A stretch of 64,000 nt of DNA from Escherichia coli O127:H6 str. E2348/69 (GCF_000026545.1 NC_011601.1); one strand, 5' to 3'; shown: positions 11,541 to 25,148, numbered from the stretch's first letter. Notes: generated by a model from the sequence alone, not told the origin. Numbers and translations: made by a program.

Positions 11541-12422
11541 TTAACGCGGTACATTCGCGGGATCGCAATAGTCCAGAAAGCGCCGTAGCGCGTTGGAAAG
11601 GTGTTTTTGCCGATGATGTATACGCCACAACGTACGCATCAGGCGCGGCAGAGGGACTGCAACTTCACTTAATGTGCCTGCCTGCAATTGATCTTCAATC
11701 ACCCGTCGCGACAGGCAACTAATTCCCAACCCATGACGCACCGCATGTTTGATTGCCTCGGAGTTACCTAATTCCATCGCCATCTCAAACTTCGGTAAAT
11801 GTGACAGCAACAGATAATCGACAATCTCCCGCGTGCCGGAACCGCGTTCACGCAGGATCCACGGCGCAGCGGCCAGCTGTTCTAAGGTGACCGGACCACG
11901 AGCCAACGGCGAAGTCGGCGCGGCGAAAACCACCAGCTCGTCTTCCAGCCACGGTTCAGAAATGATTTCAGTGCTGTGGCACGGTCCTTCAATAAAGCCA
12001 ATATCAACGCGGAAATCCAGCACCGCTTGCATCACGTCCTGGCTATTCCCAACGCTAAGTTCAATCGGCAACTGCGGATAATCATGGCGATAACGGGCGA
12101 TAACTGCAGGCAGAATGTAGTTACCGATGGTACTACTGGCATAGATACGAATCGCGCCGTTGTCTTCGCGAAACAGTTGTTCGATTTCAACCGCCTGTTC
12201 AAGCAGTGCCAACGCTCGCGGATAGAGCAGCCGCCCGTGTTCATTAACAACCAGTCTTTTCCCCACGCGATCAAACAGTTGAACGCCAAGCTGCCCTTCC
12301 AGGTCGGTCAAGGCTGCGCTCACTGCTGATTGCGACAACGCCAGCATCACCGACGCCTGGGTGGTTGATCCACTTTTCAATACTTCTGCAAAAACTTCCA
12401 ACTGCCGGAGGGTGATGTGCAT
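11541..12422 (-). CDS. yeiE: LysR-family transcriptional regulator YeiE
   Basis: 293-aa ORF with N-terminal LysR HTH ([35 protein letters not shown]); divergent from yeiH. Confidence 0.9.
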
Positions 12423-12520
12423 AGTCGCTTACCACTTATAAAGATTAATTATAAATATATAATCAATTTTATTTTTAAACCAGTTAGTCGTAACCTTATG
12501 CCCGGTTAAAGGAGAGGGTT

Positions 12521-13570
12521 ATGACGAATATCACCTTACAGAAACAACATCGTACACTGTGGCATTTTATTCCGGGGTTAGCCCTGAGTGCAGTTATCAC
12601 CGGGGTCGCCCTGTGGGGTGGTTCCATTCCCGCGGTTGCGGGTGCCGGGTTTAGTGCCCTCACCCTCGCAATCTTGTTGGGGATGGTTTTAGGCAACACC
12701 ATTTACCCGCACATCTGGAAAAGCTGTGACGGTGGTGTGCTGTTTGCCAAGCAATATTTATTACGTCTGGGTATCATTCTTTATGGCTTCCGTCTGACGT
12801 TCTCGCAAATTGCCGATGTCGGTATCAGTGGGATCATCATTGACGTGTTGACGCTGTCCAGTACCTTCCTGCTGGCTTGCTTCCTGGGGCAGAAAGTGTT
12901 TGGTCTGGATAAGCACACCAGCTGGTTGATCGGTGCCGGTAGCAGTATCTGTGGTGCTGCCGCGGTACTGGCGACTGAGCCGGTAGTGAAAGCAGAAGCC
13001 AGTAAAGTAACCGTGGCTGTTGCAACCGTTGTTATCTTCGGGACCGTCGCGATTTTCCTCTACCCGGCGATATATCCGCTGATGTCTCAATGGTTTAGTC
13101 CGGAAACTTTCGGTATCTACATTGGTTCTACTGTGCACGAAGTGGCGCAGGTGGTGGCGGCAGGTCATGCCATCAGCCCGGATGCAGAAAACGCAGCAGT
13201 TATTTCCAAAATGCTGCGCGTGATGATGCTGGCTCCGTTCCTCATCCTGCTGGCGGCGCGTGTTAAACAGCTGTCTGGGGCGAACAGCGGCGAGAAAAGC
13301 AAAATCACTATTCCGTGGTTTGCCATCTTGTTCATCGTCGTTGCCATCTTTAACTCGTTCCACCTGTTACCGCAGAGCGTGGTGAACATGCTGGTAACGC
13401 TGGATACCTTCCTGCTGGCAATGGCGATGGCGGCGCTGGGTCTGACCACTCACGTCAGCGCGCTGAAAAAAGCCGGGGCGAAACCTCTGCTGATGGCACT
13501 GGTACTGTTTGCCTGGCTGATTGTTGGTGGTGGTGCGATTAACTATGTGATTCAAAGCGTCATCGCATAA
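12521..13570 (+). CDS. yeiH: Inner membrane protein YeiH (UPF0324 / PSE family)
   Basis: 349-aa polytopic membrane ORF divergent from yeiE; matches YeiH. Confidence 0.9.
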
Positions 13571-13584
13571 ACCACTACATCTTG

Positions 13585-13636
13585 CTCCTGTTAACCCGCT
13601 ATCATTACCGTTTTCCTCCAGCGGGTTTAACAGGAG
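13585..13636 (+). other. Imperfect inverted repeat spanning the nfo ribosome-binding site
   Basis: ctcctgttaacccgct (13585-13600) pairs with agcgggtttaacaggag (13620-13636), 16 bp stem with one bulged base and a 19-nt loop; right arm contains the AGGAG SD 8 nt before the nfo ATG. Confidence 0.45.
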
Positions 13637-13643
13637 TCCTCGC

Positions 13644-14501
13644 ATGAAATACATTGGAGCGCACGTTAGTGCTGCTGGCGGTCTGGCAAATGCCGCAATT
13701 CGCGCCGCCGAAATCGACGCAACCGCGTTTGCCTTGTTCACCAAAAACCAACGTCAGTGGCGTGCCGCACCGCTCACGACGCAAACCATCGATGAATTCA
13801 AAGCCGCCTGTGAAAAATATCACTACACATCGGCGCAAATTCTTCCCCACGACAGTTATCTGATTAACCTCGGACATCCGGTTGCTGAAGCTCTGGAAAA
13901 ATCGCGCGATGCCTTTATAGATGAAATGCAGCGTTGCGAACAGCTGGGGCTTTCTTTGCTCAACTTCCACCCTGGCAGCCATCTGATGCAGATTTCAGAA
14001 GAGGATTGCCTTGCGCGTATTGCCGAATCCATCAACATTGCGCTGGATAAAACTCAAGGTGTCACCGCGGTGATTGAAAACACCGCCGGTCAGGGCAGTA
14101 ACTTAGGGTTTAAATTCGAACATCTCGCGGCGATTATCGACGGCGTGGAAGATAAATCCCGCGTCGGCGTCTGCATTGATACCTGCCATGCTTTCGCTGC
14201 CGGGTATGATTTGCGTACTCCTGCCGAATGCGAGAAAACGTTCGCTGATTTTGCCCGTATTGTAGGCTTTAAGTATCTGCGCGGGATGCACCTCAACGAT
14301 GCGAAAAGCACCTTTGGCAGCCGCGTTGACCGTCATCATAGCCTCGGCGAAGGCAATATCGGTCATGATGCGTTCCGCTGGATCATGCAAGACGACCGTT
14401 TCGACGGCATTCCGCTGATCCTTGAAACCATCAACCCGGATATCTGGGCAGAAGAGATCGCCTGGCTGAAAGCGCAACAAACTGAAAAAGCGGTGGCCTG
14501 A
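13644..14501 (+). CDS. nfo: Endonuclease IV (AP endonuclease)
   Basis: 285-aa [42 protein letters not shown]... matches Nfo. Confidence 0.95.
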
Positions 14502-14504
14502 TCG

Positions 14505-15593
14505 ATGAACGACAGGGAAAAGCAGATTCTTAAAATTTTACGGCGTAACCCGCTGATTCAACAGAATGAAATCGCCGATATTCTGCAAATCAGCCGCTCA
14601 CGTGTTGCCGCTCATATTATGGATTTGATGCGCAAGGGTTTGATTAAAGGCAAAGGATATATCCTTACCGAGCAGGATTACTGTGTGGTTGTGGGTGCAA
14701 TCAATATGGATATTCGCGGAATGGCGGATATCCGTTACCCGCAAGCAGCCTCTCATCCAGGTTCTGTTCACTGTTCCGCAGGCGGCGTCGGACGTAATAT
14801 CGCGCATAACCTGGCTCTGCTTGGTCGGGATGTGCATTTAATTTCAGCTATTGGCAACGATTTTTACGGCGAGACATTACTGGAAGAAACGCGCCGCTCG
14901 GGCGTGAACGTTTCAAACTGCATTCGTCTGCATGGACACAGCACTGCAACTTATCTCGCTATCGCTAATAAGCAGGAAGAAACTATCCTGGCAATCAATG
15001 ACACACATATTCTGCAACAGCTAACGCCTCAACTGCTCAATACTTCACGGGACTTGATTCGCCATGCTGGTGTGGTGCTGGCTGATTGTAATCTCACACC
15101 TGAAGCCCTGGAGTGGGTCTTTACCATTGCTGATGAAATTCCGATGTTTGTCGATACCGTTTCCGAATTTAAAGCGAACAAAGTAAAAAACTGGTACAGC
15201 CGGATCCACACTCTGAAACCGACACAAAATGAACTGGAAATTTTGTGGGGGCAACCGATTAAAGACGACAACGATCGTATCAGAGCTGTAAATTCGCTGC
15301 ATCAACAAGGTGTTAAACGCATTTTTGTTTATCTGAAAGATGAATCTGTATTTTGCAGCGATAAGGATGGAGAACAATTTTTGCTGACCGCGCCAGCGCA
15401 TACGACAGTAGACAGTTTTGGTGCTGACGATGGTTTTATGGCGGGCCTGGTATATAGCTTTCTTGAAGGATACAGTTTCCGCGACAGCGCCCGTTTTGCG
15501 ATGGCCTGCGCGGCAATTTCACGCGCCAGCGGCAGCTTAAACAACCCTACCCTGTCTGCCGATAACGCGCTTTCATTAGTGCCAATGGTGTAA
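14505..15593 (+). CDS. yeiI: PfkB-family carbohydrate/nucleoside kinase with N-terminal winged-helix domain (YeiI)
   Basis: 362-aa ORF; N-terminal HTH-like segment (MNDREKQILKILRRNPLIQQNEIADILQISRSRVAAHIMDLMRKGLI) followed by a ribokinase-like core (GGVGRNIAHNLALLGR) paralogous to PsuK. Confidence 0.88.
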   Translation: MNDREKQILKILRRNPLIQQNEIADILQISRSRVAAHIMDLMRKGLIKGKGYILTEQDYCVVVGAINMDIRGMADIRYPQAASHPGSVHCSAGGVGRNIAHNLALLGRDVHLISAIGNDFYGETLLEETRRSGVNVSNCIRLHGHSTATYLAIANKQEETILAINDTHILQQLTPQLLNTSRDLIRHAGVVLADCNLTPEALEWVFTIADEIPMFVDTVSEFKANKVKNWYSRIHTLKPTQNELEILWGQPIKDDNDRIRAVNSLHQQGVKRIFVYLKDESVFCSDKDGEQFLLTAPAHTTVDSFGADDGFMAGLVYSFLEGYSFRDSARFAMACAAISRASGSLNNPTLSADNALSLVPMV

Positions 15594-15600
15594 CAATGTT

Positions 15601-15635
15601 GCCGGATTCGACGCTTGACCGCATCTTATCCGGCT
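15601..15635. repeat. REP (repetitive extragenic palindrome) element
   Basis: gccggattcgacgcttgaccgcatcttatccggct resembles the REP consensus GCCGGATGCGGCG...CTTATCCGGCC; between convergent yeiI and nupX. Confidence 0.6.
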
Positions 15636-15648
15636 CATAAATTGCGCA

Positions 15649-16899
15649 CTACGCTAAACCAATAAAGAATCCTGCAATAGTAGCACTCATCAGGTTAGAA
15701 AGTGTCGCCGCCGCCAGCGCGCGTAAACCAAGTTGGGCGATTTCCGGCGCACGGTGTGGCGCAACCGCAGAAAACGCCCCCACCACCACCCCGATAGAAC
15801 CAAAGTTAGCGAAACCGCACAACGCGAAAGAAATAATCGCCACGGTTTTAGCATCCAGAGTGCCACCCGTTTGCAGATATGGCGAGAAATTGAGATAAGC
15901 GACAAATTCATTGATCGCCAGCTTCTGCCCAATCAAACTCCCGGCAAGATTTGCATCACTCCAGTCAACCCCCATCACCCACGCCAATGGGGCCAACAGG
16001 TAACCTAAAATCGACTCCAGCGAAGCATGTTCAAAACCAAACCAGCCGCCAACACCGCCGATAATACCGTTAATCAACGCAATTATTGCAACAAATGCCA
16101 TCACCACTGTCGCCACACCTGCGGCGATTTTCAGCCCGGTCATTGCCCCTGTTGCAGCGGCTTCAATAATGCTCTTTGGCGGTGTTTCGGTGAAAGAGAG
16201 GTTATTAAAGGAAACCTGCGAAGATTCCGTAGCCGGGCTTAACAGGCGGGCAAACAAGATCCCACCGGGAATCGCCATTAACGATGCCGCCAGCAGATAT
16301 TCCACAGGCACGCCCAGTGCGGCGTAACCAATCATTGTCGAACCAGCAATCGAGGCCATACCGCTGCAAATCGCTGTAAATAATTCATTGCGATTCAGCC
16401 GATCGATAAAGGGTTTGACGATTGCCGGAATTTCGTTTTGCCCGAGGAAAATGGTAGTGACCGCGACGAATGACTCGATCTTGCTGATATTTAATGCTTT
16501 CTGGAAGATACCGCCGAGAATTCGAATTAAGATCCCCATCACACCGATGTAGTAGAGAATACTCACCAGCGCGGTGACGAAGATAATTGCCGGTAACACC
16601 CTGAAACCAAAGATAAATCCTGCGCCATCAAATAAGGTATCCATTTTCGGTCCGACCAGAGAACCGAAAATAAATGCGCTACCCGCGTCGCTGTACGCCA
16701 TCACTTTATGGACGCCAAAAGCGACTTTTTCTGCGACCCAACGCCCTGGCGGTAACCAAAGCATTATGCCGCCAATCACGACCTGTAACACTAACGCCGC
16801 GCCAACGGTACGCAGGCTGATCTTCTTTTTGTTTACTGACAGCAAAAACGCAATAGCCAGTAATACCACCATTCCCAGAACACTTCTCATGACATCCAT
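15649..16899 (-). CDS. nupX: NupC-family nucleoside transporter NupX
   Basis: 416-aa ORF; concentrative nucleoside transporter fold; close paralog of the psuT product in this window. Confidence 0.9.
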   Translation of the reverse strand: MDVMRSVLGMVVLLAIAFLLSVNKKKISLRTVGAALVLQVVIGGIMLWLPPGRWVAEKVAFGVHKVMAYSDAGSAFIFGSLVGPKMDTLFDGAGFIFGFRVLPAIIFVTALVSILYYIGVMGILIRILGGIFQKALNISKIESFVAVTTIFLGQNEIPAIVKPFIDRLNRNELFTAICSGMASIAGSTMIGYAALGVPVEYLLAASLMAIPGGILFARLLSPATESSQVSFNNLSFTETPPKSIIEAAATGAMTGLKIAAGVATVVMAFVAIIALINGIIGGVGGWFGFEHASLESILGYLLAPLAWVMGVDWSDANLAGSLIGQKLAINEFVAYLNFSPYLQTGGTLDAKTVAIISFALCGFANFGSIGVVVGAFSAVAPHRAPEIAQLGLRALAAATLSNLMSATIAGFFIGLA

Positions 16900-16998
16900 A
16901 GTTATTATCTCTTCATGTCATTTTGGGCGACGGCTCTCTGCCCATCATAAATAGCCGGGCCTGCATCTTGCGATACTGACCCGGCTTGTTATCAACAC

Positions 16999-17940
16999 TT
17001 AATGGGTTTTTATGTAGCCGCGTACGCACTCTTCGACTAATCCCCAGAACCAGTCGGTATCAATAGTGATGCCGACTTTGGTATTGGCGGGCTTGCCAAG
17101 AACACCCAGCTCGTCGCAGACGGTACGCCCATAGCAAGGGCCACTGTTAACGTCCACTTCGACGTACATTTCCTGGGTTTTAATGCCATCAGGGTTAATC
17201 AAATAACCGATGCAGGTGGCGTCGTGCACCGGGCCGCCAGCCAGGCCGTAGTTTTCGAACTGCGTTTTGAGAGTGAAGTTCATGATGTCGCTGAACAGCT
17301 CTCCGGCAGGGCCGCCAGCCCTTTCCATCCGAGCAATCACATCCGGGGTGCAAACGGTCTGGTTGGTAAGATCGAGGCCCATCATCACTAATGGAACGCC
17401 GGAGGTGAACACCACACGTGCGGCCTCCGGGTCAGCAAAGATGTTGAACTCAGCAGATGGGGTGAAGTTGCCAGTACCATAAGCACCGCCCATCAGAACA
17501 ATTTCACGGATTTTCGGCAGGATCGCGGGTTGCATACGCATTGCCACCGCGATGTTTGACAACGGACCAACCGGCACCAGAGTGATATCGCCATCGCTTG
17601 CCATAAGGGTATCGATGATATATTTCACCGCATGAGTGTTTTCTGCCTGGCGGGTCAGCGGCTCGAATACCGGGCCATCCAGTCCGGTTTCACCGTGAAT
17701 ATTATCGGCAACAATTTGTTGACGCATAATGGGCTGCGGCATCCCCGCATAAACCGGAACATTAATCTCCAGTTTCTGGCAAACATTCAGGCCATTAATT
17801 AATGTTTTATCGAGGGTTTGATTACCCGCTACAATGGTGATACCTAATAAATCAATCGCCGGATGTTTCGCCGCCATCATTATAGCAATAGCATCATCAT
17901 GACCCGGATCACAATCCAGAATAATTTTTCTCTTTTCCAT
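16999..17940 (-). CDS. rihB: Pyrimidine-specific ribonucleoside hydrolase RihB
   Basis: 313-aa ORF with N-terminal DCDPGHDDA nucleoside-hydrolase motif; matches RihB (YeiK). Confidence 0.92.
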
Positions 17941-18108
17941 TGTTTATTTCCTCTGTTTCCAGTTGCGTTATTGTTTCTACAGCAAAGAAAATTCGATCGG
18001 GCCGATGATTGAATCTTAACAACAGCGTACGTATGCTAAATATGAGAAATCTCATAGCGGATAAACATCGTGAAAGAAATCCACAATAATGATCTTAAGC
18101 AGCAATTG

Positions 18109-18768
18109 ATGAGTGAATCTGCGTTTAAGGATTGCTTTTCAACGGATGTTTCAGCCGATACGCGGCTGTTTCATTTTTTAGCGCGTGACTACATTGTGCA
18201 GGAAGGGCAACAGCCGTCCTGGCTGTTTTACCTGACGCGAGGCCGCGCCAGGCTTTACGTCACGCTTGCTAATGGTCGCGTGTCGCTGATCGATTTCTTT
18301 GCCGCGCCCTGTTTTATTGGCGAGATTGAGTTAATCGACAAAGACCATGAACCGCGTGCAGTGCAGGCTATTGAAGAGTGTTGGTGCCTTGCGCTCCCTA
18401 TGAAGCATTACCGCCCGTTGTTATTAAACGACACGCTATTTTTACGAAAACTCTGCGTCACCTTAAGTCATAAAAATTATCGTAATATTGTTTCTTTAAC
18501 TCAGAATCAATCATTTCCGTTAGTGAATCGCCTGGCAGCTTTTATATTACTCTCGCAGGAAGGTGATCTTTATCACGAAAAGCATACGCAAGCGGCAGAG
18601 TATTTAGGCGTCTCTTATCGTCATCTTTTATATGTTCTCGCGCAATTCATTAATGACGGTTTATTAATTAAAAGCAAGAAAGGGTATCTCATTAAAAACA
18701 GAAAGCAGTTGTCAGGACTGGCGCTGGAGATGGACCCGGAGAATAAATTCTCCGGGATGATGCAGTAA
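18109..18768 (+). CDS. yeiL: CRP/FNR-family transcriptional regulator YeiL
   Basis: ORF 18070-18768 (232 aa) trimmed to [10 protein letters not shown]... giving the recalled 219 aa; cNMP-binding-like domain plus C-terminal HTH; start could be 18070. Confidence 0.85.
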
Positions 18769-18790
18769 AAATTATTGGCAATAGTGCGAT

Positions 18791-18827
18791 TGCCGGATGC
18801 AACGCTTAATAAGGTGTACATCCGGCA
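18791..18827. repeat. REP-like palindromic element
   Basis: tgccggatgcaacgcttaataaggtgtacatccggca; terminal inverted repeats GCCGGATG/CATCCGGC; between yeiL and psuT. Confidence 0.5.
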
Positions 18828-18834
18828 ATGAAAC

Positions 18835-20085
18835 TCAAGCTAAACCAATAAAGAACCCGGCAATGGTCGCGCTCATCAGGTTAGAAAGTGTCGCCGCCGC
18901 CAGCGCCCGTAAACCAAGCTGGGCGATTTCCGGCGCACGTTTTGGCGAAATAGCCGAAAACGCCCCAACGACAACACCGATAGAACCAAAGTTAGCAAAA
19001 CCACACAGCGCAAAGGAGATGATCGCCACGGTTTTCACTTCCAGCGTGCCGCCCGTTTGCAGATATGGCGAAAAACTCAGGTAAGCGACAAATTCGTTAA
19101 TCGCCAGTTTCTGCCCAATCAAACTTCCGGCAAGATTTGCATCACTCCAGTCCACCCCCATAATCCATGCCAACGGGGCCAGCACATAGCCGAAAATGCT
19201 TTCCAGAGAGACATTGGCAAAACCAAACCAGCCGCCAACTCCACCAATAATGCCGTTGATCAGCGCAATGATCGCCACAAATGCCATTACCACCGTCGCC
19301 ACACCGGCGGCGATTTTCAGCCCGGTCATTGCACCGTTCGCCGCAGCTTCAATAATGCTTTTTGGCGGTGTTTCGCTAAACGACAGATTTTCAAATGTCA
19401 CCTGCGAAGGCTCGGTGGCTGGGCTAAGAATACGTGCAAACAAAATACCACCAGGGATCGCCATCAGCGATGCCGCTAACAGGTAGTCAATTGGTACGCC
19501 CATTCCGGCATAACCAATCATCATCGAACCGGCAATGGACGCCATCCCGCTACAAATTGCCGTAAATAGCTCGTTGCGATTCATGCGATCGATAAACGGT
19601 TTAACGATCGCCGGGATCTCATTTTGCCCGAGGAAAATAGTGGTAACCGCAACAAAAGATTCGATTTTGCTGATGTTGAGGGCTTTCTGAAAAATACTAC
19701 CAAGAATGCGGATTAGCAGCCCCATCACGCCAATGTAGTACAGCAGGCTGATGAGCGCGGTAACGAAAATAATCGCCGGGAGTACGCGAAAGGCGAAGAT
19801 AAAGCCCGCACCGTCAAACAGAACATCCATTTTGGGACCGACCAGCGAACCAAAAATAAAGGCACTTCCTGCGTCACTGTAGGACATCACTTTATGGACG
19901 CCTAATGCCGCCTGCTCTACTGCCCATTTTCCCGGGGGAAAATAGAGCATGATGCCACCAATGGCAATTTGCAGCAGCAGCGCAGCCCCAACCGTGCGCA
20001 AGCTGATGCTCTTTTTATTTACCGACAACACAAAGGCAATTGCCAGCAATACCACCATCCCCACAACACTTCTCATTATATCCAT
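18835..20085 (-). CDS. psuT: NupC-family pseudouridine/nucleoside transporter PsuT
   Basis: 416-aa ORF, roughly 88% identical by eye to NupX; heads the distal end of the psuK-psuG-psuT operon. Confidence 0.9.
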   Translation of the reverse strand: MDIMRSVVGMVVLLAIAFVLSVNKKSISLRTVGAALLLQIAIGGIMLYFPPGKWAVEQAALGVHKVMSYSDAGSAFIFGSLVGPKMDVLFDGAGFIFAFRVLPAIIFVTALISLLYYIGVMGLLIRILGSIFQKALNISKIESFVAVTTIFLGQNEIPAIVKPFIDRMNRNELFTAICSGMASIAGSMMIGYAGMGVPIDYLLAASLMAIPGGILFARILSPATEPSQVTFENLSFSETPPKSIIEAAANGAMTGLKIAAGVATVVMAFVAIIALINGIIGGVGGWFGFANVSLESIFGYVLAPLAWIMGVDWSDANLAGSLIGQKLAINEFVAYLSFSPYLQTGGTLEVKTVAIISFALCGFANFGSIGVVVGAFSAISPKRAPEIAQLGLRALAAATLSNLMSATIAGFFIGLA

Positions 20086-20178
20086 AATGATTTTCCCTTC
20101 ATGCCAGTAAACCCGGCGTCAGCGCCAGGTTTTGGTATGTTTGATGAGTACGGGCGACGGCTTTCTGCCCACCAGAAA

Positions 20179-21117
20179 TTAACCCACGAGACGCTGATAT
20201 TCTTTGGCAATTTCGCTCGCCAGAATGGCGTTATTAAAGACCAGTTGAATATTGGATTTCAGGCTATCACCGCCGGTTAGCTCCGCAACACGCGCCAGCA
20301 GGAACGGTGTACTCTCTTTCCCAATAACACCCTGTTCTTCGGCTTCAGCAACGGCTTGATCAATTGCTGCATTGATGGTTTCTTCTGGCATCGCAAACTG
20401 TTCCGGGATCGGGTTCGCTACCACCAGGCCGCCGTTCAAACCGGTTTGCCACTTCACTGCCATCGCGCGAGCAATTTCGCGGGCACTGTCAAGACGAATG
20501 CTGACTTCAAATGGGCTGGTTCGGCAGAAAAACGCAGGCAGCGCTTTTGTCTGATAACCAATTAACGGTACACCGAAGGTTTCTAAATATTCTGTTGTTA
20601 ATCCTAAATCGAGAATAGATTTTGCCCCCGCACAAACAACAGTGACATTGGTATTTGCCAGTTCCTGTAAATCGGCAGAAATATCGAAGGTATGTTCCGC
20701 TCCGCGATGCACACCACCAATACCTCCGGTTGCAAAAACTTTAATCCCAGCCAGTGCTGCAATAATCATGGTTGATGCAACGGTAGTCGCGCCATTTTTC
20801 CCTGCAGCAACGACAAAAGGTAAATCACGACGACTAACTTTCGTCACGTTATGTCCTTCACGGCCCAGCAATTCGATTTCTTCTTTACTTAAGCCCACTT
20901 TCATCACACCGCCAATAATGGCGATAGTGGCTGGTACTGCGCCCTGTTTACGAATTGTTTCTTCTACTTCAATTGCGGTTTGGGCATTTTGTGGGAATGG
21001 CATTCCGTGAGAAATTATGGTCGATTCCAGCGCAACAACCGGTTTTTTATTTTTTAAAGCATCCTGTACTTCAGCGGATATTTGTAATAATTCAGGGGAC
21101 AGAGTTAATTCAGACAT
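20179..21117 (-). CDS. psuG: Pseudouridine-5'-phosphate glycosidase PsuG
   Basis: 312-aa ORF MSELTLSPELLQISAEVQDALKNKKPVVALESTIISHGMPFPQN...; indigoidine-synthase-A-like fold; matches PsuG (YeiN). Confidence 0.92.
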   Translation of the reverse strand: MSELTLSPELLQISAEVQDALKNKKPVVALESTIISHGMPFPQNAQTAIEVEETIRKQGAVPATIAIIGGVMKVGLSKEEIELLGREGHNVTKVSRRDLPFVVAAGKNGATTVASTMIIAALAGIKVFATGGIGGVHRGAEHTFDISADLQELANTNVTVVCAGAKSILDLGLTTEYLETFGVPLIGYQTKALPAFFCRTSPFEVSIRLDSAREIARAMAVKWQTGLNGGLVVANPIPEQFAMPEETINAAIDQAVAEAEEQGVIGKESTPFLLARVAELTGGDSLKSNIQLVFNNAILASEIAKEYQRLVG

Positions 21118-22046
21118 TCTGTGTTCTCCACTAACGATGTAACATTGGCAATTGATAATTCAGGGTTGTTGGTATATTCACAGGCAAGTGCCATTGACGA
21201 ACATCCCTGCGCAAATCGAACAGAATCGATAAACGGCATACCGTCTACCCAACAGGAGGCCAGCCCCGCCATCATGGCGTCGCCTGCCCCAGTAACATTG
21301 ATGACATTCGTTTTAATAGGGGCCGACCACCCACTTTCACCGTTGATATCACTGTAGTAAACGCCATCCCCTCCCATGCTCAGCACCAGGCGGTTCAGGC
21401 CGTGTTGATGAAACCAGGCGGCGACCTTTGCGACATCTTCACGTCCGGAAAGTGCAATTCCGCTCAACGTTTCGGCTTCAAGACGGTTAGGTTTTAACGT
21501 ATGGATTTTGCTCAGATGATCGCGGATTTTGACGCATTTCCATGCCGATACCGGATCAATAAATACAGGCGTTTCCCCGCTATTTTCCAGAACCCAGACC
21601 AGCGCCTCTTCACTAAGGTTGCAATCCGCGACAATAACCTTTGCACCGCGAATAAACTCCTGATGCTGGGCAAGAAATTCTGCAGAAATACAGTCACTAA
21701 TACTCATATCATTTATCGCGACAAGCATTTCTCCTGTATTATCGAGCAGTGATAAATAGCTGGATGTATTCTCACCCGGAACAATTAAGCATTTATCGAC
21801 ATAAACACCGGATTGATTAGTTTGCGCCAGTAATGATTGCCCATAAAAATCACCACCTACTGCACTTAAAAGCCAGGCATTTTTCCCCAGTAACGCCAGA
21901 TTATGAGCGATATTCCTTCCCACGCCACCTGGGGTAAATTTAATTTTTCCGGGATTCGAATCCGCATAATTCAATGGATGATGTGAATACCCAGCCACAT
22001 CAATATTCGCCGAGCCAATAATTACTATGTAGTCCTTTTCGCGCAT
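21105..22046 (-). CDS. psuK: Pseudouridine kinase PsuK (PfkB family)
   Basis: Frame 21105-22160 trimmed to MREKDYIVIIGSANIDVAGYS... giving the recalled 313 aa; overlaps the psuG start. Confidence 0.88.
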   Translation of the reverse strand: MREKDYIVIIGSANIDVAGYSHHPLNYADSNPGKIKFTPGGVGRNIAHNLALLGKNAWLLSAVGGDFYGQSLLAQTNQSGVYVDKCLIVPGENTSSYLSLLDNTGEMLVAINDMSISDCISAEFLAQHQEFIRGAKVIVADCNLSEEALVWVLENSGETPVFIDPVSAWKCVKIRDHLSKIHTLKPNRLEAETLSGIALSGREDVAKVAAWFHQHGLNRLVLSMGGDGVYYSDINGESGWSAPIKTNVINVTGAGDAMMAGLASCWVDGMPFIDSVRFAQGCSSMALACEYTNNPELSIANVTSLVENTECLN

Positions 22047-22289
22047 AGCACGCCCCCTGGCAATAAATTGCCAACGAAGAAATTGGGTAAAATAGTCATT
22101 ACAGTCAATAAGACTATTAGAGCACGTGTTCAGATTTAAACACATGTTCATAATAAGCATGTTTAACGTAATGTAAATCGATCAGAAAAAACGAAATCGG
22201 CCAGATATGAAGGCGGTCACAAAATTTGTCTATTTATGCAGCAACAAAAGAGAAAGTTGTGATGTGTAACACACAATATGGCAGGCAAG

Positions 22290-22314
22290 AAAAAGGGCAG
22301 AGATGTTTCTGCCC
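22290..22314 (-). terminator. Rho-independent terminator (distal terminator of the fruBKA transcript)
   Basis: Minus strand reads GGGCAGA-aacatc-TCTGCCC followed by TTTTT. Confidence 0.55.
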
Positions 22315-22345
22315 TCAGATTGTTGACAATGCGCGCTTTGTTCAT

Positions 22346-22444
22346 GCTGGATGTGGCGTAAACGCCTTATCCGACCTACAAAAGCGCAAAAATTCAATAT
22401 ATTGCAGGGTTCATGTAGGTCTGATAAGCATAGCGCATCAGGCA
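22346..22444. repeat. BIME: pair of inverted REP elements
   Basis: gctggatgtggcgtaaacgccttatccgacctac (22346-22379) and gtaggtctgataagcatagcgcatcaggca (22415-22444) both match REP consensus variants in opposite orientation. Confidence 0.6.
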
Positions 22445-22456
22445 ATTTTGCGTTTG

Positions 22457-22494
22457 TCATCATCGGGGCAGAGATGTCTCAGCCCCGATGATGA
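22457..22494. other. Perfect 13-bp-stem hairpin immediately 3' of fruA
   Basis: tcatcatcggggc (22457-22469) pairs perfectly with gccccgatgatga (22482-22494), 12-nt loop; no adjacent T-tract so not a classical intrinsic terminator. Confidence 0.5.
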
Positions 22495-22501
22495 AGAGAA
22501 A

Positions 22502-24193
22502 TTATGCGTTTTTTTCTACTATTTGTGTTTCCGGGCGTTTGAGGAAGGCATAGGCCAAACCCGCCACCAGCGTACCGGCAATAATTGCTACCAGGTAACC
22601 CAATACCGGCGTAATAGCGCCAGGGATCAGCAGAACAAACAGACCACCGTGTGGTGCCATCAGTTTCGCACCAATCGCCATTGAAATTGCGCCAGTCAGC
22701 GCCCCACCAACGATACAGCACGGTAGCACACGCATCGGATCACGAGCAGCAAACGGAATTGCACCTTCCGAAATAAAGCACAGACCAAGTACCAGAGCGG
22801 CTTTGCCACCTTCCTGCTGCGCTTTGTCGAATTTGCGACGCGCCACCATTGTTGCCAGACCCATTGCCAGCGGTGGCACCATACCTGCCGCCATAATCGC
22901 CGCCATCGGGCCATAGGTTTGAGTACTCAGCAGACCCACACCGAATGCGTACGCTGCTTTGTTTACCGGACCGCCCATGTCAGTACACATCATGCCACCG
23001 AGGATCGCCCCCAGCAGAACCGCATTCGCAGTCCCCATGGTCTGCAGCCAGTGAGTCAACCCATCGAGAATGCCAGCAACCGGTTTACCGATTAGGTAGA
23101 TCATCGCCAGACCGACCACCAGACTGGAAATTAGCGGAATGATCAGGATCGGTTTCAGTGCCTCCATACTCTGTGGCAGTTTCAGTTGCGTACTGATTAA
23201 CTTCGCAATGTAACCCGCCAGGAAGCCCGCAATAATACCACCAATGAAGCCAGAACCGGTGCTAACCGCCAGCATACCGCCAATCAGACCCGGCGTGAGA
23301 CCCGGACGATCGGCAATGGAGAAGGCAATATAACCTGCCAGTACCGGCACCATCAGCGCAAAGGCTGAACCACCACCAATCTGCATCAGCGCCGCTGCCA
23401 ACGTACCCGGCTCTTTAAACGCTTCGATACCAAAAGCAAAAGAAAGCGCGATACACAGACCACCTGCAACAACCATCGGCAGCATGTAAGAGACGCCCGT
23501 CAGCAAGTGACGGTAAGCACCTGCACTCTCTTTCTTACCTTCAGTGGTCGCTGTTTGAGTTTTGCCCGCCGGTTCATACGGCGTTGCTTCAGCAACCGCT
23601 TTATCCAGTTCCTGCGCAGTTTTCTTCAGCGCCAGACCGGTAGAGGTGCGATACATCGGTTTACCAGCAAATTTCGCCAGATCCACTTCGATATCTGCCG
23701 CCACAATCACCAGATCCGCTGCTGCGACTTCTTCAGGGGTGATTGCATTGCCCGCGCCAACAGAACCACGGGTTTCAACTTTCACCCACCAGCCACGTTT
23801 TTTCGCTTCGGTTTCAATGGCTTCAGCCGCCATAAAGGTGTGTGCTACGCCAGTCGGGCAAGCAGTCACCGCAACTACGCGTTTCGGACCGCTGGCAGCA
23901 ACCGGTGCTGTCGCAGCGACCGGCGCAGTGTAAGGTTTCGCATGGCCTTTGGCTTCACTCAGGAACAACTCAGGGTGCGCAACTGCCCGGGAAATATCAC
24001 CCAGCCAGACATTTTTACCGTTCAGCGCGCTGTCATTCGGGATGGAATCACCGAGAACAATCGCCATTTCTGCGTCGTTCGGATTGTCGATGATTTCCAG
24101 TTTTGCTTTTCGCGCCGCCGCGCCCAGCAGGGTCTTCGCCATATAGGCGCGTGCCTGACCGAGATTAGCGTCAATAATCAGCAGCGTTTTCAT
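22502..24193 (-). CDS. fruA: Fructose PTS EIIB'BC component FruA
   Basis: 563-aa ORF matching FruA. Confidence 0.95.
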   Translation of the reverse strand: MKTLLIIDANLGQARAYMAKTLLGAAARKAKLEIIDNPNDAEMAIVLGDSIPNDSALNGKNVWLGDISRAVAHPELFLSEAKGHAKPYTAPVAATAPVAASGPKRVVAVTACPTGVAHTFMAAEAIETEAKKRGWWVKVETRGSVGAGNAITPEEVAAADLVIVAADIEVDLAKFAGKPMYRTSTGLALKKTAQELDKAVAEATPYEPAGKTQTATTEGKKESAGAYRHLLTGVSYMLPMVVAGGLCIALSFAFGIEAFKEPGTLAAALMQIGGGSAFALMVPVLAGYIAFSIADRPGLTPGLIGGMLAVSTGSGFIGGIIAGFLAGYIAKLISTQLKLPQSMEALKPILIIPLISSLVVGLAMIYLIGKPVAGILDGLTHWLQTMGTANAVLLGAILGGMMCTDMGGPVNKAAYAFGVGLLSTQTYGPMAAIMAAGMVPPLAMGLATMVARRKFDKAQQEGGKAALVLGLCFISEGAIPFAARDPMRVLPCCIVGGALTGAISMAIGAKLMAPHGGLFVLLIPGAITPVLGYLVAIIAGTLVAGLAYAFLKRPETQIVEKNA

Positions 24194-24209
24194 TATGCCT
24201 CTCCTGCTG

Positions 24210-25148
24210 TCAGTTAAAAGGTTGTAAGTCGACGCGCGCCATCATTGCGGCCAACTGCGGACGATCGGTAATACCCACATTGCTTTGACTTACCGCCAGG
24301 GCTGCAACAGCTGTCGCCAGACGCAGTGTGTGTTCACTGGATTCACGCATCAGCAAGCCATAAATCAGGCCACCAACCATAGAATCCCCTGCGCCAACGG
24401 TGCTTACGACATCGACTGACGGTGGTTTGGCGATCCATTCGCCGGAGGCATTAACCCAAAGCGCGCCTTCGGCACCCAGTGAAATAACAACATGCGCGAT
24501 GCCTTGTTCACGCAGCGCATGCGCAGCTTCAATCACATCTTTCATTTCAGGCAGTTTACGGCCTGCCCAGATTTCCAGCTCGCGGCGGTTAGGTTTCACC
24601 AGCCACGGTGCCGCTTTCAAACCTGCTACTAACGCTTCACGGCTACTATCAAAGATAATGCAAGGACACTGACTACGCAGGCGAGTCATCCAGTCGGTGA
24701 ACGCTTCCGGGCTGACGCCTGACGGTAAGCTTCCGCTGACACAGACCATATCGAACTGACCGAGCCAGCTCAGAGAATCAGTCACAAAGCGTTCCCAGTC
24801 GGCGGGGGTGACTTCAAAACCCGAGAAGTTGAAGTCGGTCACTTCGCCGTCTTTTTCCGTCAGCTTAACGTTAATTCGGGTGCGCCCCTGTACAACCTGG
24901 AAACGGTTGGCAATGCCCAGCTCGCTGAACAGTTGCTGAAAACCATCCTGATTGTCTTTACCCATGAAGCCGCCAACGGTGACATCAATTCCCAGGTCTT
25001 TTAATACTTTGGCCACGTTGATGCCTTTACCCGCCGCATGCAGACCGGTGGTTTTCACCAGGTTCACTTCGCCGCGTTCAATTTCCGGGCAGAAACCAAC
25101 AAGGTCATAAGCCGGATTAAGGGTGATAGTAGCAACACGTCTGCTCAT
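24210..25148 (-). CDS. fruK: 1-phosphofructokinase FruK
   Basis: 312-aa PfkB-family ORF matching FruK. Confidence 0.95.
   Translation of the reverse strand: MSRRVATITLNPAYDLVGFCPEIERGEVNLVKTTGLHAAGKGINVAKVLKDLGIDVTVGGFMGKDNQDGFQQLFSELGIANRFQVVQGRTRINVKLTEKDGEVTDFNFSGFEVTPADWERFVTDSLSWLGQFDMVCVSGSLPSGVSPEAFTDWMTRLRSQCPCIIFDSSREALVAGLKAAPWLVKPNRRELEIWAGRKLPEMKDVIEAAHALREQGIAHVVISLGAEGALWVNASGEWIAKPPSVDVVSTVGAGDSMVGGLIYGLLMRESSEHTLRLATAVAALAVSQSNVGITDRPQLAAMMARVDLQPFN

Follow-up and report, generated by a model that had tools for sequence, protein, structure and literature searches.

YeiI of Escherichia coli as a candidate pseudouridine-sensing repressor of the psuKGT operon

What does YeiI do, and with which of its neighbours does it act? 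The yeiI gene occupies positions 14505-15593 (plus strand; NF007416) of a 64,000-nucleotide stretch from Escherichia coli O127:H6 str. E2348/69, referred to here as the window, and encodes a PfkB-type kinase homologue bearing an additional N-terminal domain. A first-pass annotation of the window had remarked on this unusual architecture, and had placed yeiI together with nupX and rihB in a nucleoside module of undefined substrate, paralogous to the pseudouridine module psuK-psuG-psuT. The protein is indeed an odd one, and was still called uncharacterised in papers from 2022 (PMC9061257) and 2025 (PMC12506659), the latter a survey that uses YeiI as an example of machine learning wrongly predicting a 'pseudouridine kinase'. 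YeiI is also listed, without a target, among hypothetical transcription factors (PMC6055005), while the LysR regulator called 'YeiI' in PMC6698644 is an evident slip for YeiE. Our literature search, which did not cover subscription journals or curated databases, found no YeiI function, psuKGT regulator, 'PsuR' or PfkB pseudokinase regulator. Based on the comparisons of sequences, predicted structures and gene neighbourhoods described below, we consider it rather likely that YeiI is a pseudouridine-sensing repressor of psuKGT, born by gene duplication and subfunctionalisation. We give an even chance to the fuller statement that YeiI is catalytically dead, and that it derives from a duplicated kinase-repressor fusion whose functions were divided between PsuK and YeiI.

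YeiI consists of 2 domains. Codons 1-53 (14505-14663, plus strand) encode a winged helix-turn-helix (HTH), as judged from Pfam and an AlphaFold (AF2) model, and codons 54-362 (14664-15593, plus strand) encode a PsuK-like PfkB domain, as judged from similarity to PsuK and structure superposition. Residues 1-48 matched Pfam HTH_24 (E = 2.8e-11), and the model, with an overall predicted local distance difference test score (pLDDT) of 86.5, placed helices at residues 3-14, 20-27 and 31-43 and a beta-hairpin wing at 46-53 (pLDDT 71-88), followed by the PfkB fold. The suspicion that the N-terminus is a domain of DNA-binding type was therefore borne out by both the hidden Markov model search and the predicted structure. 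The recognition helix reads ISRSRVAAHIMDL and the wing KGKGYIL. The modelled PfkB fold superposed on E. coli PsuK (EcPUKI or YeiC; PDB 7VTD, 7VVA) with a template modelling (TM) score of 0.95 and a root-mean-square deviation of 1.9 Å relative to 7VTD, and residues 54-359 were 41% identical to PsuK (E = 8e-83). YeiI scored 814 bits with NF007416, but only 266 bits with the pseudouridine kinase equivalog NF007355, which is under its curated cutoff of 540 bits; PsuK of the window, which lacks an HTH (21105-22046, minus strand), scored 709 bits with NF007355.

Contacts taken from the EcPUKI-pseudouridine structure (PMC9061257) were transferred onto YeiI. Residues N67, D69, S83, Y150, N165, N196 and K223, corresponding to N14, D16, S30, Y97, N112, N143 and K170 of EcPUKI, were all kept, as was base Asp256, and the sole change among the mapped contacts was Met114 to Thr. 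YeiI and EcPUKI share the same ribose and base hydrogen-bonding residues, including the residue of the Ser30 loop that triggers dimer closure, and none of the residues that hydrogen bond with the pseudouridine base was altered. Equivalents of the base contacts Ser30, Asn143 and Lys170 and of the ribose contacts Asn14 and Asp16 were present in 41 of 43 YeiI orthologues; P0052 from Phytobacter sp. V91 is an orthologue with a degraded pocket. In contrast to the pocket, the phosphoryl-transfer motifs of YeiI are degenerate: NxxE reads TQNE (the Asn replaced by T240), GxxG reads KDES and GAGD reads GADD. These switches were fixed across the 43 orthologues, with the GxxG replacement being acidic, while PsuK of the window bears canonical KPNRLEAE, MGGDG and GAGD. 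Hence the view that the 2 kinases share a catalytic core held for the nucleoside-contact residues, but not for these 3 motifs. Despite this decay, ligand contacts were kept and the gene is under purifying selection, the pattern of a sensor pseudoenzyme; alleles of E2348/69 and K-12 differ by 109 synonymous and 53 nonsynonymous codons, and both bear the switched motifs. Based on the changed ATP/Mg-phosphate motifs, we infer that YeiI has lost or nearly lost kinase activity and serves as a sensor pseudoenzyme.

The 94 full-length winged-helix-PfkB homologues that were compared split into 2 classes. All of those at least 67% identical to YeiI (from E. coli, Salmonella, Enterobacter, Citrobacter and Pseudocitrobacter) bore the YeiI-type switches, while those that were 40-56% identical, including proteins from Yersinia, Serratia, Xenorhabdus, Pasteurella, Shewanella and Aeromonas, nearly all displayed canonical KPNRLEAE, GxxG and GAGD motifs together with a pocket identical to that of PsuK. 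An unbiased site scan identified 53 positions with conservation of 90% or more among the catalytic homologues; the YeiI class keeps 44 of these and switches 9, with 5 of the 9 falling within the NxxE, GxxG and GAGD motifs. The relative of YeiI in Affinibrenneria has intermediate motifs (KPSQHEAA, DDNS and GADE), while in P0098, a deep relative on a metagenome contig, the catalytic Asp (GIDN), the Lys185 equivalent and Asn67 are gone, but base contacts and HTH persist, along with the cassette and the operator described below. The HTH was conserved above the kinase-like domain in every comparison made (for YeiI and the Yersinia fusion protein, 74% identity in the HTH compared to 47% in the remainder), and the recognition helix, ISRS-x-VA-x-HIM, was nearly invariant throughout the family.

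These patterns bear on whether YeiI might instead be an active kinase whose specificity has shifted to a different substrate, for example a modified uridine or a pseudouridine derivative, so that it would be enzyme and regulator at once. Asp309 and Lys238 are retained in the Enterobacteriaceae clade, the pocket-side switches M114T, M107T and D29A/S could alter specificity, and 3 fused proteins that lack the NxxE Asn are the only PsuK-type kinase in their respective loci, suggesting that a change in one motif alone is tolerated. In YeiI, however, 3 separate phosphate-binding motifs are altered jointly and fixed, with acidic residues standing at glycines that contact the ATP phosphates in the PfkB family. 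Moreover, the base hydrogen-bonding residues for pseudouridine are all unchanged, P0098 keeps cassette, HTH and operator without the catalytic Asp and Lys, and none of the 14 yeiI cassettes contains a second glycosidase or other downstream enzyme accompanying yeiI. The degeneracy of the phosphoryl-transfer motifs makes a kinase for another modified nucleoside the less likely reading, and we consider a retuned, active YeiI unlikely. According to a passage in PMC12506659 (citing Preumont 2008), a psuK mutant with intact yeiI cannot use pseudouridine, which we count as indirect evidence in favour of YeiI being a regulator rather than a kinase.

To which genes, then, does yeiI belong? One genome per species was scanned with an alignment of winged-helix-PfkB proteins, retrieving 80 loci, and further loci were obtained by targeted look-up. 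Outside the Enterobacteriaceae, psuG is directly preceded by the winged-helix kinase gene, and a gene for a NupC-type transporter often comes next; such fusions were found in Yersiniaceae, Hafnia, Photorhabdus, Gilliamella, Chromobacteriaceae-type genera, Shewanella, Aeromonas, Vibrio, Ferrimonas and several Clostridia. In E. albertii, 4 Citrobacter, Enterobacter, Phytobacter ATCC 27989 and Leclercia, the order is instead yeiH-nfo-yeiI, then a convergent transporter-psuG-psuK operon, then fruA, with a single transporter and without rihB or yeiL. Overall, yeiI stood beside psuT-psuG-psuK without rihB, nupX or yeiL in 9 other enterobacterial loci as well as in Salmonella, Affinibrenneria and the metagenome contig, such that the 4-gene cassette occurs in 4 chromosomal contexts (nfo/fruA, a Salmonella island, Affinibrenneria and the metagenome contig). 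In Salmonella enterica (L086, GCA_010633625.1) the cassette lies away from nfo/fruA, on an island that also carries RelB/ParE, transposases and a thymidine-phosphorylase-like gene, which fits a joint horizontal transfer of all 4 genes. The motif state of yeiI correlated perfectly with the presence of a separate psuK across all loci examined. All 14 degenerate YeiI-class genes were convergent to an operon with a separate, HTH-less psuK, and never inside it, while the 63 winged-helix-PfkB genes directly upstream of psuG had no second psuK nearby, and were either canonical (60) or lacked only the NxxE Asn (3).

The genes between yeiI and psuT have a history of their own. In the window, yeiI is followed by nupX (15649-16899, minus strand; a NupC/CNT-family transporter, TIGR00804), the second gene of a rihB-nupX operon; by rihB (16999-17940, minus strand; NF007417, 726 bits against a cutoff of 459), which encodes a pyrimidine-preferring nucleoside hydrolase; and by the divergent yeiL (18070-18768, plus strand; NF007707, 419 bits against a cutoff of 180), which encodes a CRP/FNR-family regulator. 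Homologues of YeiL are widespread, and yeiL is divergent with an IU_nuc_hydro gene in E. coli, Phytobacter, Hafnia and Enterococcus. In Hafnia alvei its divergent neighbours are a hydrolase gene and a transporter gene, and the surroundings contain neither yeiI nor psu genes; in Enterococcus malodoratus, the divergent genes encode a nucleoside hydrolase, a ribokinase-like protein and a Bmp/ABC nucleoside transporter. The conserved partner of rihB is therefore yeiL, rather than yeiI with which it had been grouped. Beyond these genes lie psuT (18835-20085, minus strand), encoding the transporter of the pseudouridine operon, and psuG (20179-21117, minus strand), encoding pseudouridine-5'-phosphate glycosidase, a member of the Indigoidine_A family in all related loci. 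The estimate that NupX and PsuT are about 88% identical agreed with our measurement (370/416, or 89%, with 80% DNA identity), and both exceeded the NupC-type family cutoff of 442 bits (501 for NupX and 518 for PsuT). PsuT was 98% identical to the E. albertii transporter and 94-95% identical to those of Citrobacter, while NupX branched off before the group that the psu-linked transporters of other Enterobacteriaceae form. Other genera have one psu-linked transporter, to which PsuT is orthologous, and NupX is an older paralogue of PsuT; this branching and the 80% DNA identity led us to reject the idea that nupX is a recent tandem copy of psuT. We likewise rejected an E. coli-specific insertion, as the complete E. 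coli order recurs in one genome of Phytobacter ursingii, and the insert is missing from the type strain.

The independent occurrence of yeiL-rihB units, the orthology of PsuT and the outside position of NupX support a nested organisation, yeiI [nupX-rihB / yeiL] psuT-psuG-psuK. The outer unit is a pseudouridine-catabolism cassette comprised of the psuK-psuG-psuT operon and convergent yeiI. The inner, mobile unit, inserted between yeiI and psuT in E. coli and some other strains, is comprised of yeiL and divergent rihB-nupX, and serves pyrimidine-nucleoside uptake and hydrolysis under its own CRP/FNR-type regulator. Very probably, then, yeiI belongs with psuKGT, and not with rihB-nupX.

This organisation leaves little room for the proposal of a single yeiI-nupX-rihB module that would parallel psuK-psuG-psuT, handle an undefined and perhaps modified nucleoside, and have YeiI as kinase, regulator or both. 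The 3 genes are adjacent in E. coli, the kinases and transporters of the 2 sets are paralogous, and NupX has no defined substrate (PMC3368855). However, RihB (IU_nuc_hydro) and PsuG (Indigoidine_A) have unrelated folds, and the lack of a defined substrate holds for NupX and YeiI but not for RihB, which acts in vitro on uridine (Michaelis constant 142 µM) and cytidine (532 µM), as reviewed in PMC10526354. In addition, yeiI is on the opposite strand, starting 3 bp after the nfo stop codon, and in most genera it occurs without nupX, rihB and yeiL; conversely, Hafnia has rihB, a transporter gene and yeiL without yeiI, and Enterococcus likewise rihB and yeiL, while some E. coli strains have lost nupX alone. 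Finally, a hydrolase that releases the base would make a kinase redundant in the same pathway, and no YeiI-type operator lies near rihB or nupX. Taken together, these findings render a yeiI-nupX-rihB module very improbable. Among the strains with losses, nupX is reduced to a 66-bp remnant in E. coli AVS0750 (L095), while in TUM2820 (L096) an IS5-associated deletion from nfo to yeiL removes yeiI, nupX and rihB, and psuG has an internal stop.

If YeiI regulates psuKGT, the psuK control region would be expected to carry its binding site. Alignment of the psuK upstream regions of 10 enterobacterial loci revealed 5 conserved islands: 2 CRP-like sites, a -35 element (TTTACA or TTTACT), a -10 element and, directly after the latter, tandem palindromes of the form GAACAnnTGTTY, in 2 copies 18 bp apart. 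In the window, all of these lie on the minus strand. The predicted psuK promoter (22150-22177), with -35 TTTACA at 22177-22172 and -10 TATTAT at 22155-22150, is the best sigma-70-like match in 13400-22600 (TTTACA-16-TATTAT, 10/12). Abutting it, the predicted operator (22120-22149), GAACATGTGTTT-AAATCT-GAACACGTGCTC, 18 bp from centre to centre, begins at the base following the -10 hexamer. Upstream lie the 2 CRP-like sites (22206-22273), TGTGTTACACATCACA at 22273-22258 and TGTGACCGCCTTCATA at 22221-22206, recognised by consensus resemblance only, and the fruA terminator hairpin (22293-22316, minus strand) is the upstream limit of the control region.

With at most one mismatch, the tandem operator had a single match in the window, at 22120-22149 (0.06 expected), while the single palindrome occurred 3 times (1.09 expected). 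A partial tandem match with 3 mismatches, the first palindrome of which (AAACAGTTGTTC) is perfect, lies at 12171-12200 inside the yeiE coding sequence, and is probably due to chance. Beyond the window, the general consensus CAAACAnnTGTTTG, present twice with 18-19 bp spacing, was located behind the promoter of fused-kinase operons in at least 16 genera, no more than ~60 bp ahead of the kinase gene. At 14 or more of 16 matches, the tandem motif occurred within 120 bp upstream of 30 of the 63 fused genes, against a background of 3 in 1.15 Mb. Nine enterobacterial loci each contained a single tandem match, always upstream of psuK; the operator was kept in all Enterobacteriaceae psuK promoters examined, and also preceded psuK in the Affinibrenneria and metagenome cassettes (L087 and L094). 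In 3 psuK-psuG-psuT operons without a fused or neighbouring winged helix, the tandem operator was not found. Nor was a YeiI-type operator found near rihB, yeiL, nupX or yeiI, and its absence upstream of the stand-alone yeiI of Salmonella and Affinibrenneria gives no sign of autoregulation via the tandem motif. Both intergenic regions that had been put forward as YeiI targets accordingly lack the predicted operator, namely the rihB-yeiL spacer and 15594-15648, the latter merely separating convergent gene ends. We found one case of covariation between recognition helix and operator: Arg33 accompanies an outer G in the YeiI clade, compared to Gly, Ser or Ala with an outer A elsewhere. As this change is a single evolutionary event, and no further independent cases were found, it is suggestive only.

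An alternative view of the tandem palindrome is that it is the site of some other regulator, and that YeiI is a remnant of the fusion protein which is decaying or has turned to other targets. In favour of this view, motif and protein are linked by correlation, the CAAAC half-site resembles the half-sites of the PurR box (PurR of the LacI family), most clearly in the Aeromonas variant GACAAACGTTTG, and the Phytobacter sp. V91 orthologue has its degraded pocket. On the other hand, the motif accompanies the winged helix in Proteobacteria and Clostridia alike, and operons that have no winged helix lack it. The spacing in CAAACA-NN-TGTTTG is also unlike that of the PurR box, the consensus of which has no NN spacer between its half-sites. 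Furthermore, the HTH is the most conserved part of YeiI, and the gene displays an excess of synonymous change. We therefore regard this alternative as improbable.

Two further observations concern the operator and the promoter. In the organism represented by L094, a second tandem operator (TAACACTTGACCACAAAAGAACAAGTGTTT, at 919-948) closely precedes an unannotated gene of 112 residues, which hints at a further target. A study of evolution in stationary phase over 1,200 days (PMC7858067) reported a recurrent mutation in the psuK/fruA intergenic region, at -126 from the psuK ATG, as well as 4 mutations in nupX. Position -126 in K-12 (L085) is the third base of the -35 element, and the mutation (TTTACT to TTGACT) brings it nearer to consensus; since the study also lists this position among the differences between parent and reference, the recurrence may not be independent. 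The psuK -35 and nupX mutations suggest selection on pseudouridine/nucleoside scavenging in starvation.

These elements can be assembled into a mechanism in which YeiI would act as the specific transcription factor of the pseudouridine cassette. Its N-terminal winged helix is predicted to bind the tandem palindrome at 22149-22120. Since this site starts right after the -10 hexamer and extends over the predicted transcription start, YeiI would act as a roadblock when bound. The C-terminal domain, formerly a pseudouridine kinase, would have retained the ability to bind pseudouridine. In PsuK, pseudouridine binding closes the dimer via the Ser30 loop (PMC9061257); a comparable closure in YeiI might reposition the 2 winged helices and free the operator, leading to induction of psuKGT. 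The upstream CRP-like sites may add catabolite control to psuK.

Several points weigh against YeiI being a pseudouridine-sensing repressor. Retention of the catalytic Asp (D309) and of the Lys185 equivalent (K238) in Enterobacteriaceae YeiI makes residual or altered kinase activity possible, and 3 conserved pocket-side changes in the YeiI class (D29 to A/S, M107T and M114T) could point to a ligand other than plain pseudouridine. With regard to the operator, its link to YeiI is one of co-occurrence, such that another factor may bind the predicted site. The negative control consists of 3 loci judged by their nearby genes, so that a partner could be encoded elsewhere in the genome. The strict threshold was passed by just 30 of 63 fused loci, operator variants are divergent in Aeromonas and several Clostridia, and the second half-site is degenerate in Salmonella. 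Lastly, the kinase tree discussed below is a neighbour-joining tree in which the YeiI stem is long.

How might such a protein have arisen? In the kinase-domain tree (200 bootstraps), enterobacterial HTH-less PsuK grouped with fusions from Yersinia, Hafnia, Photorhabdus and Pasteurella (bootstrap 90), and the YeiI clade together with Affinibrenneria (bootstrap 100) was the sister of this group. The two combined (bootstrap 95) place both YeiI and enterobacterial PsuK within an Enterobacterales-type clade of winged-helix-PsuK fusions. The distribution and the tree suggest that the ancestor was a bifunctional, self-regulating fusion of the kind seen in Yersinia, Serratia, Photorhabdus, Shewanella, Aeromonas, Vibrio and Clostridia, and that it was duplicated, with one copy shedding its HTH to become PsuK while the other shed catalysis to become YeiI. 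The motif decay in Affinibrenneria and P0098 is the pattern expected from such a division. A tblastn search with 7 HTH sequences against 21901-22520, upstream of psuK, yielded only chance-level matches (best E = 0.006 over 26 residues), and gives no support either way for an HTH remnant at E. coli psuK.

The extant fusions share with YeiI the 2-domain architecture, a nearly identical recognition helix and the same operator motif in the controlled promoter. They differ in that they keep all catalytic motifs and form the first gene of the psuG operon, and are presumably both enzyme and autoregulator, whereas YeiI is degenerate, lies apart from the operon and is paired with an HTH-less PsuK. PsuK itself has the same PfkB fold, but YeiI bears the additional winged helix, and its gene stands outside the psuG operon, on the other strand. 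The fusions are annotated only as 'PfkB family carbohydrate kinase', and our literature search found no experimental study of them. In Yersinia kristensenii (L001/L002, 8001-8027), the annotated 9-residue N-terminal extension of the fused kinase, MFKNKQVSI, is translated operator; the protein probably starts at the downstream ATG, which aligns with the other family members. Xenorhabdus species (L030-L033, L036, L052 and L055-L057) contain 1-2 extra winged-helix-PfkB paralogues with canonical motifs that do not lie beside psuG. A conserved CTTACGATC...TCTCA element is common to the regions upstream of these paralogues, and recurs ~105 bp upstream of the psuG-linked genes in Yersinia, Hafnia and Photorhabdus.

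The locus also displays marked allelic variation. Between E2348/69 and K-12 there is a divergent haplotype at 14450-22620 with sharp bounds, flanked by yeiH, nfo and fruK at 98-99.7% DNA identity. Identity was 81% for yeiI, 80.6% for psuK and 63-70% for the psuK promoter region, compared to 88% for psuG, 92% for psuT and 95-98% for nupX, rihB and yeiL. The YeiI and PsuK alleles of E2348/69 clustered with those of E. albertii rather than K-12, and most of 5,430 E. coli records were just 90-95% identical to this stretch. Ancient allelic dimorphism or introgression, peaking at the regulator and its target, would fit these observations.

The gene identities and coordinates named for the region were all confirmed by open reading frame listing and NCBIfam scans, and 14505-22160 matched the E2348/69 genome with 100% identity. 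Upstream of yeiI lies nfo (13644-14501, plus strand; endonuclease IV). As only 3 bp separate the 2 genes, yeiI is probably co-transcribed with nfo, and this adjacency is kept in the Citrobacter, Enterobacter, Phytobacter and Leclercia loci. The spacer between the convergent 3' ends of yeiI and nupX (15594-15648) contains an inverted repeat, GCCGGAT...ATCCGGC, and is not a promoter region. In the divergent control region between rihB and yeiL (17941-18069), read directly from the sequence, there is an FNR/CRP-type half-palindrome, TTGAATCTTAACAA, at 18009-18022 and a perfect palindrome, ATGAGAAATCTCAT, at 18042-18055, a short distance ahead of the yeiL start; each is a candidate site for YeiL or FNR. 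The fruA-psuK spacer contains a sequence resembling repetitive extragenic palindromic (REP) elements at 22340-22422 that lacks a counterpart in the K-12 allele, where insertions and deletions intervene. An Rfam scan of 12000-25000 yielded just 2 sub-threshold REP-like small RNA matches, naRNA4 (29 bits) and ES036 (27 bits).

Other regulators have drawn their sensors from enzymes. The ROK-family proteins NagC and Mlc, B. subtilis PurR with its phosphoribosyltransferase-like domain and the Nudix-related NrtR each combine a DNA-binding domain with a homologue of a pathway enzyme that kept ligand binding and lost catalysis, as we propose for YeiI, but these belong to other folds and families. To our knowledge, no PfkB-derived transcriptional sensor has been described. 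BirA and NadR are bifunctional enzyme-repressors in which an HTH is fused to an active enzyme and the substrate or product controls DNA binding. They resemble the ancestor proposed here, but YeiI apparently gave up its enzymatic half, and the families are unrelated. Within the PfkB family, the fructokinase-like proteins FLN1 and FLN2 of plant plastids have lost kinase activity and act in a transcription complex. Like YeiI as proposed, they are PfkB members with a role in transcription but no kinase activity; they differ in being eukaryotic, in having no DNA-binding domain of their own and in being unrelated to nucleosides.

Our analysis corrects the reading of this gene neighbourhood, in that rihB-nupX-yeiL is a separate mobile module nested in the pseudouridine cassette, and replaces the 'unknown sugar kinase' YeiI with a specific proposal, comprising a target promoter, a 30-bp operator, a ligand and a predicted loss of catalysis. 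The relatives of YeiI provide a natural series for the split of enzyme and regulator, from fused and active through intermediate (Affinibrenneria) and degenerate (Enterobacteriaceae) to fully dead (P0098). If the proposal is correct, YeiI would be the first transcription factor with a sensor domain derived from a PfkB kinase, as well as the first bacterial regulator described as dedicated to the breakdown of a modified RNA nucleoside, and the conserved operator would define a regulon reaching from Clostridia to Enterobacteriaceae. A regulator for the pseudouridine operon would bear on the physiology of RNA turnover, and on strains engineered to overproduce pseudouridine for mRNA manufacture.

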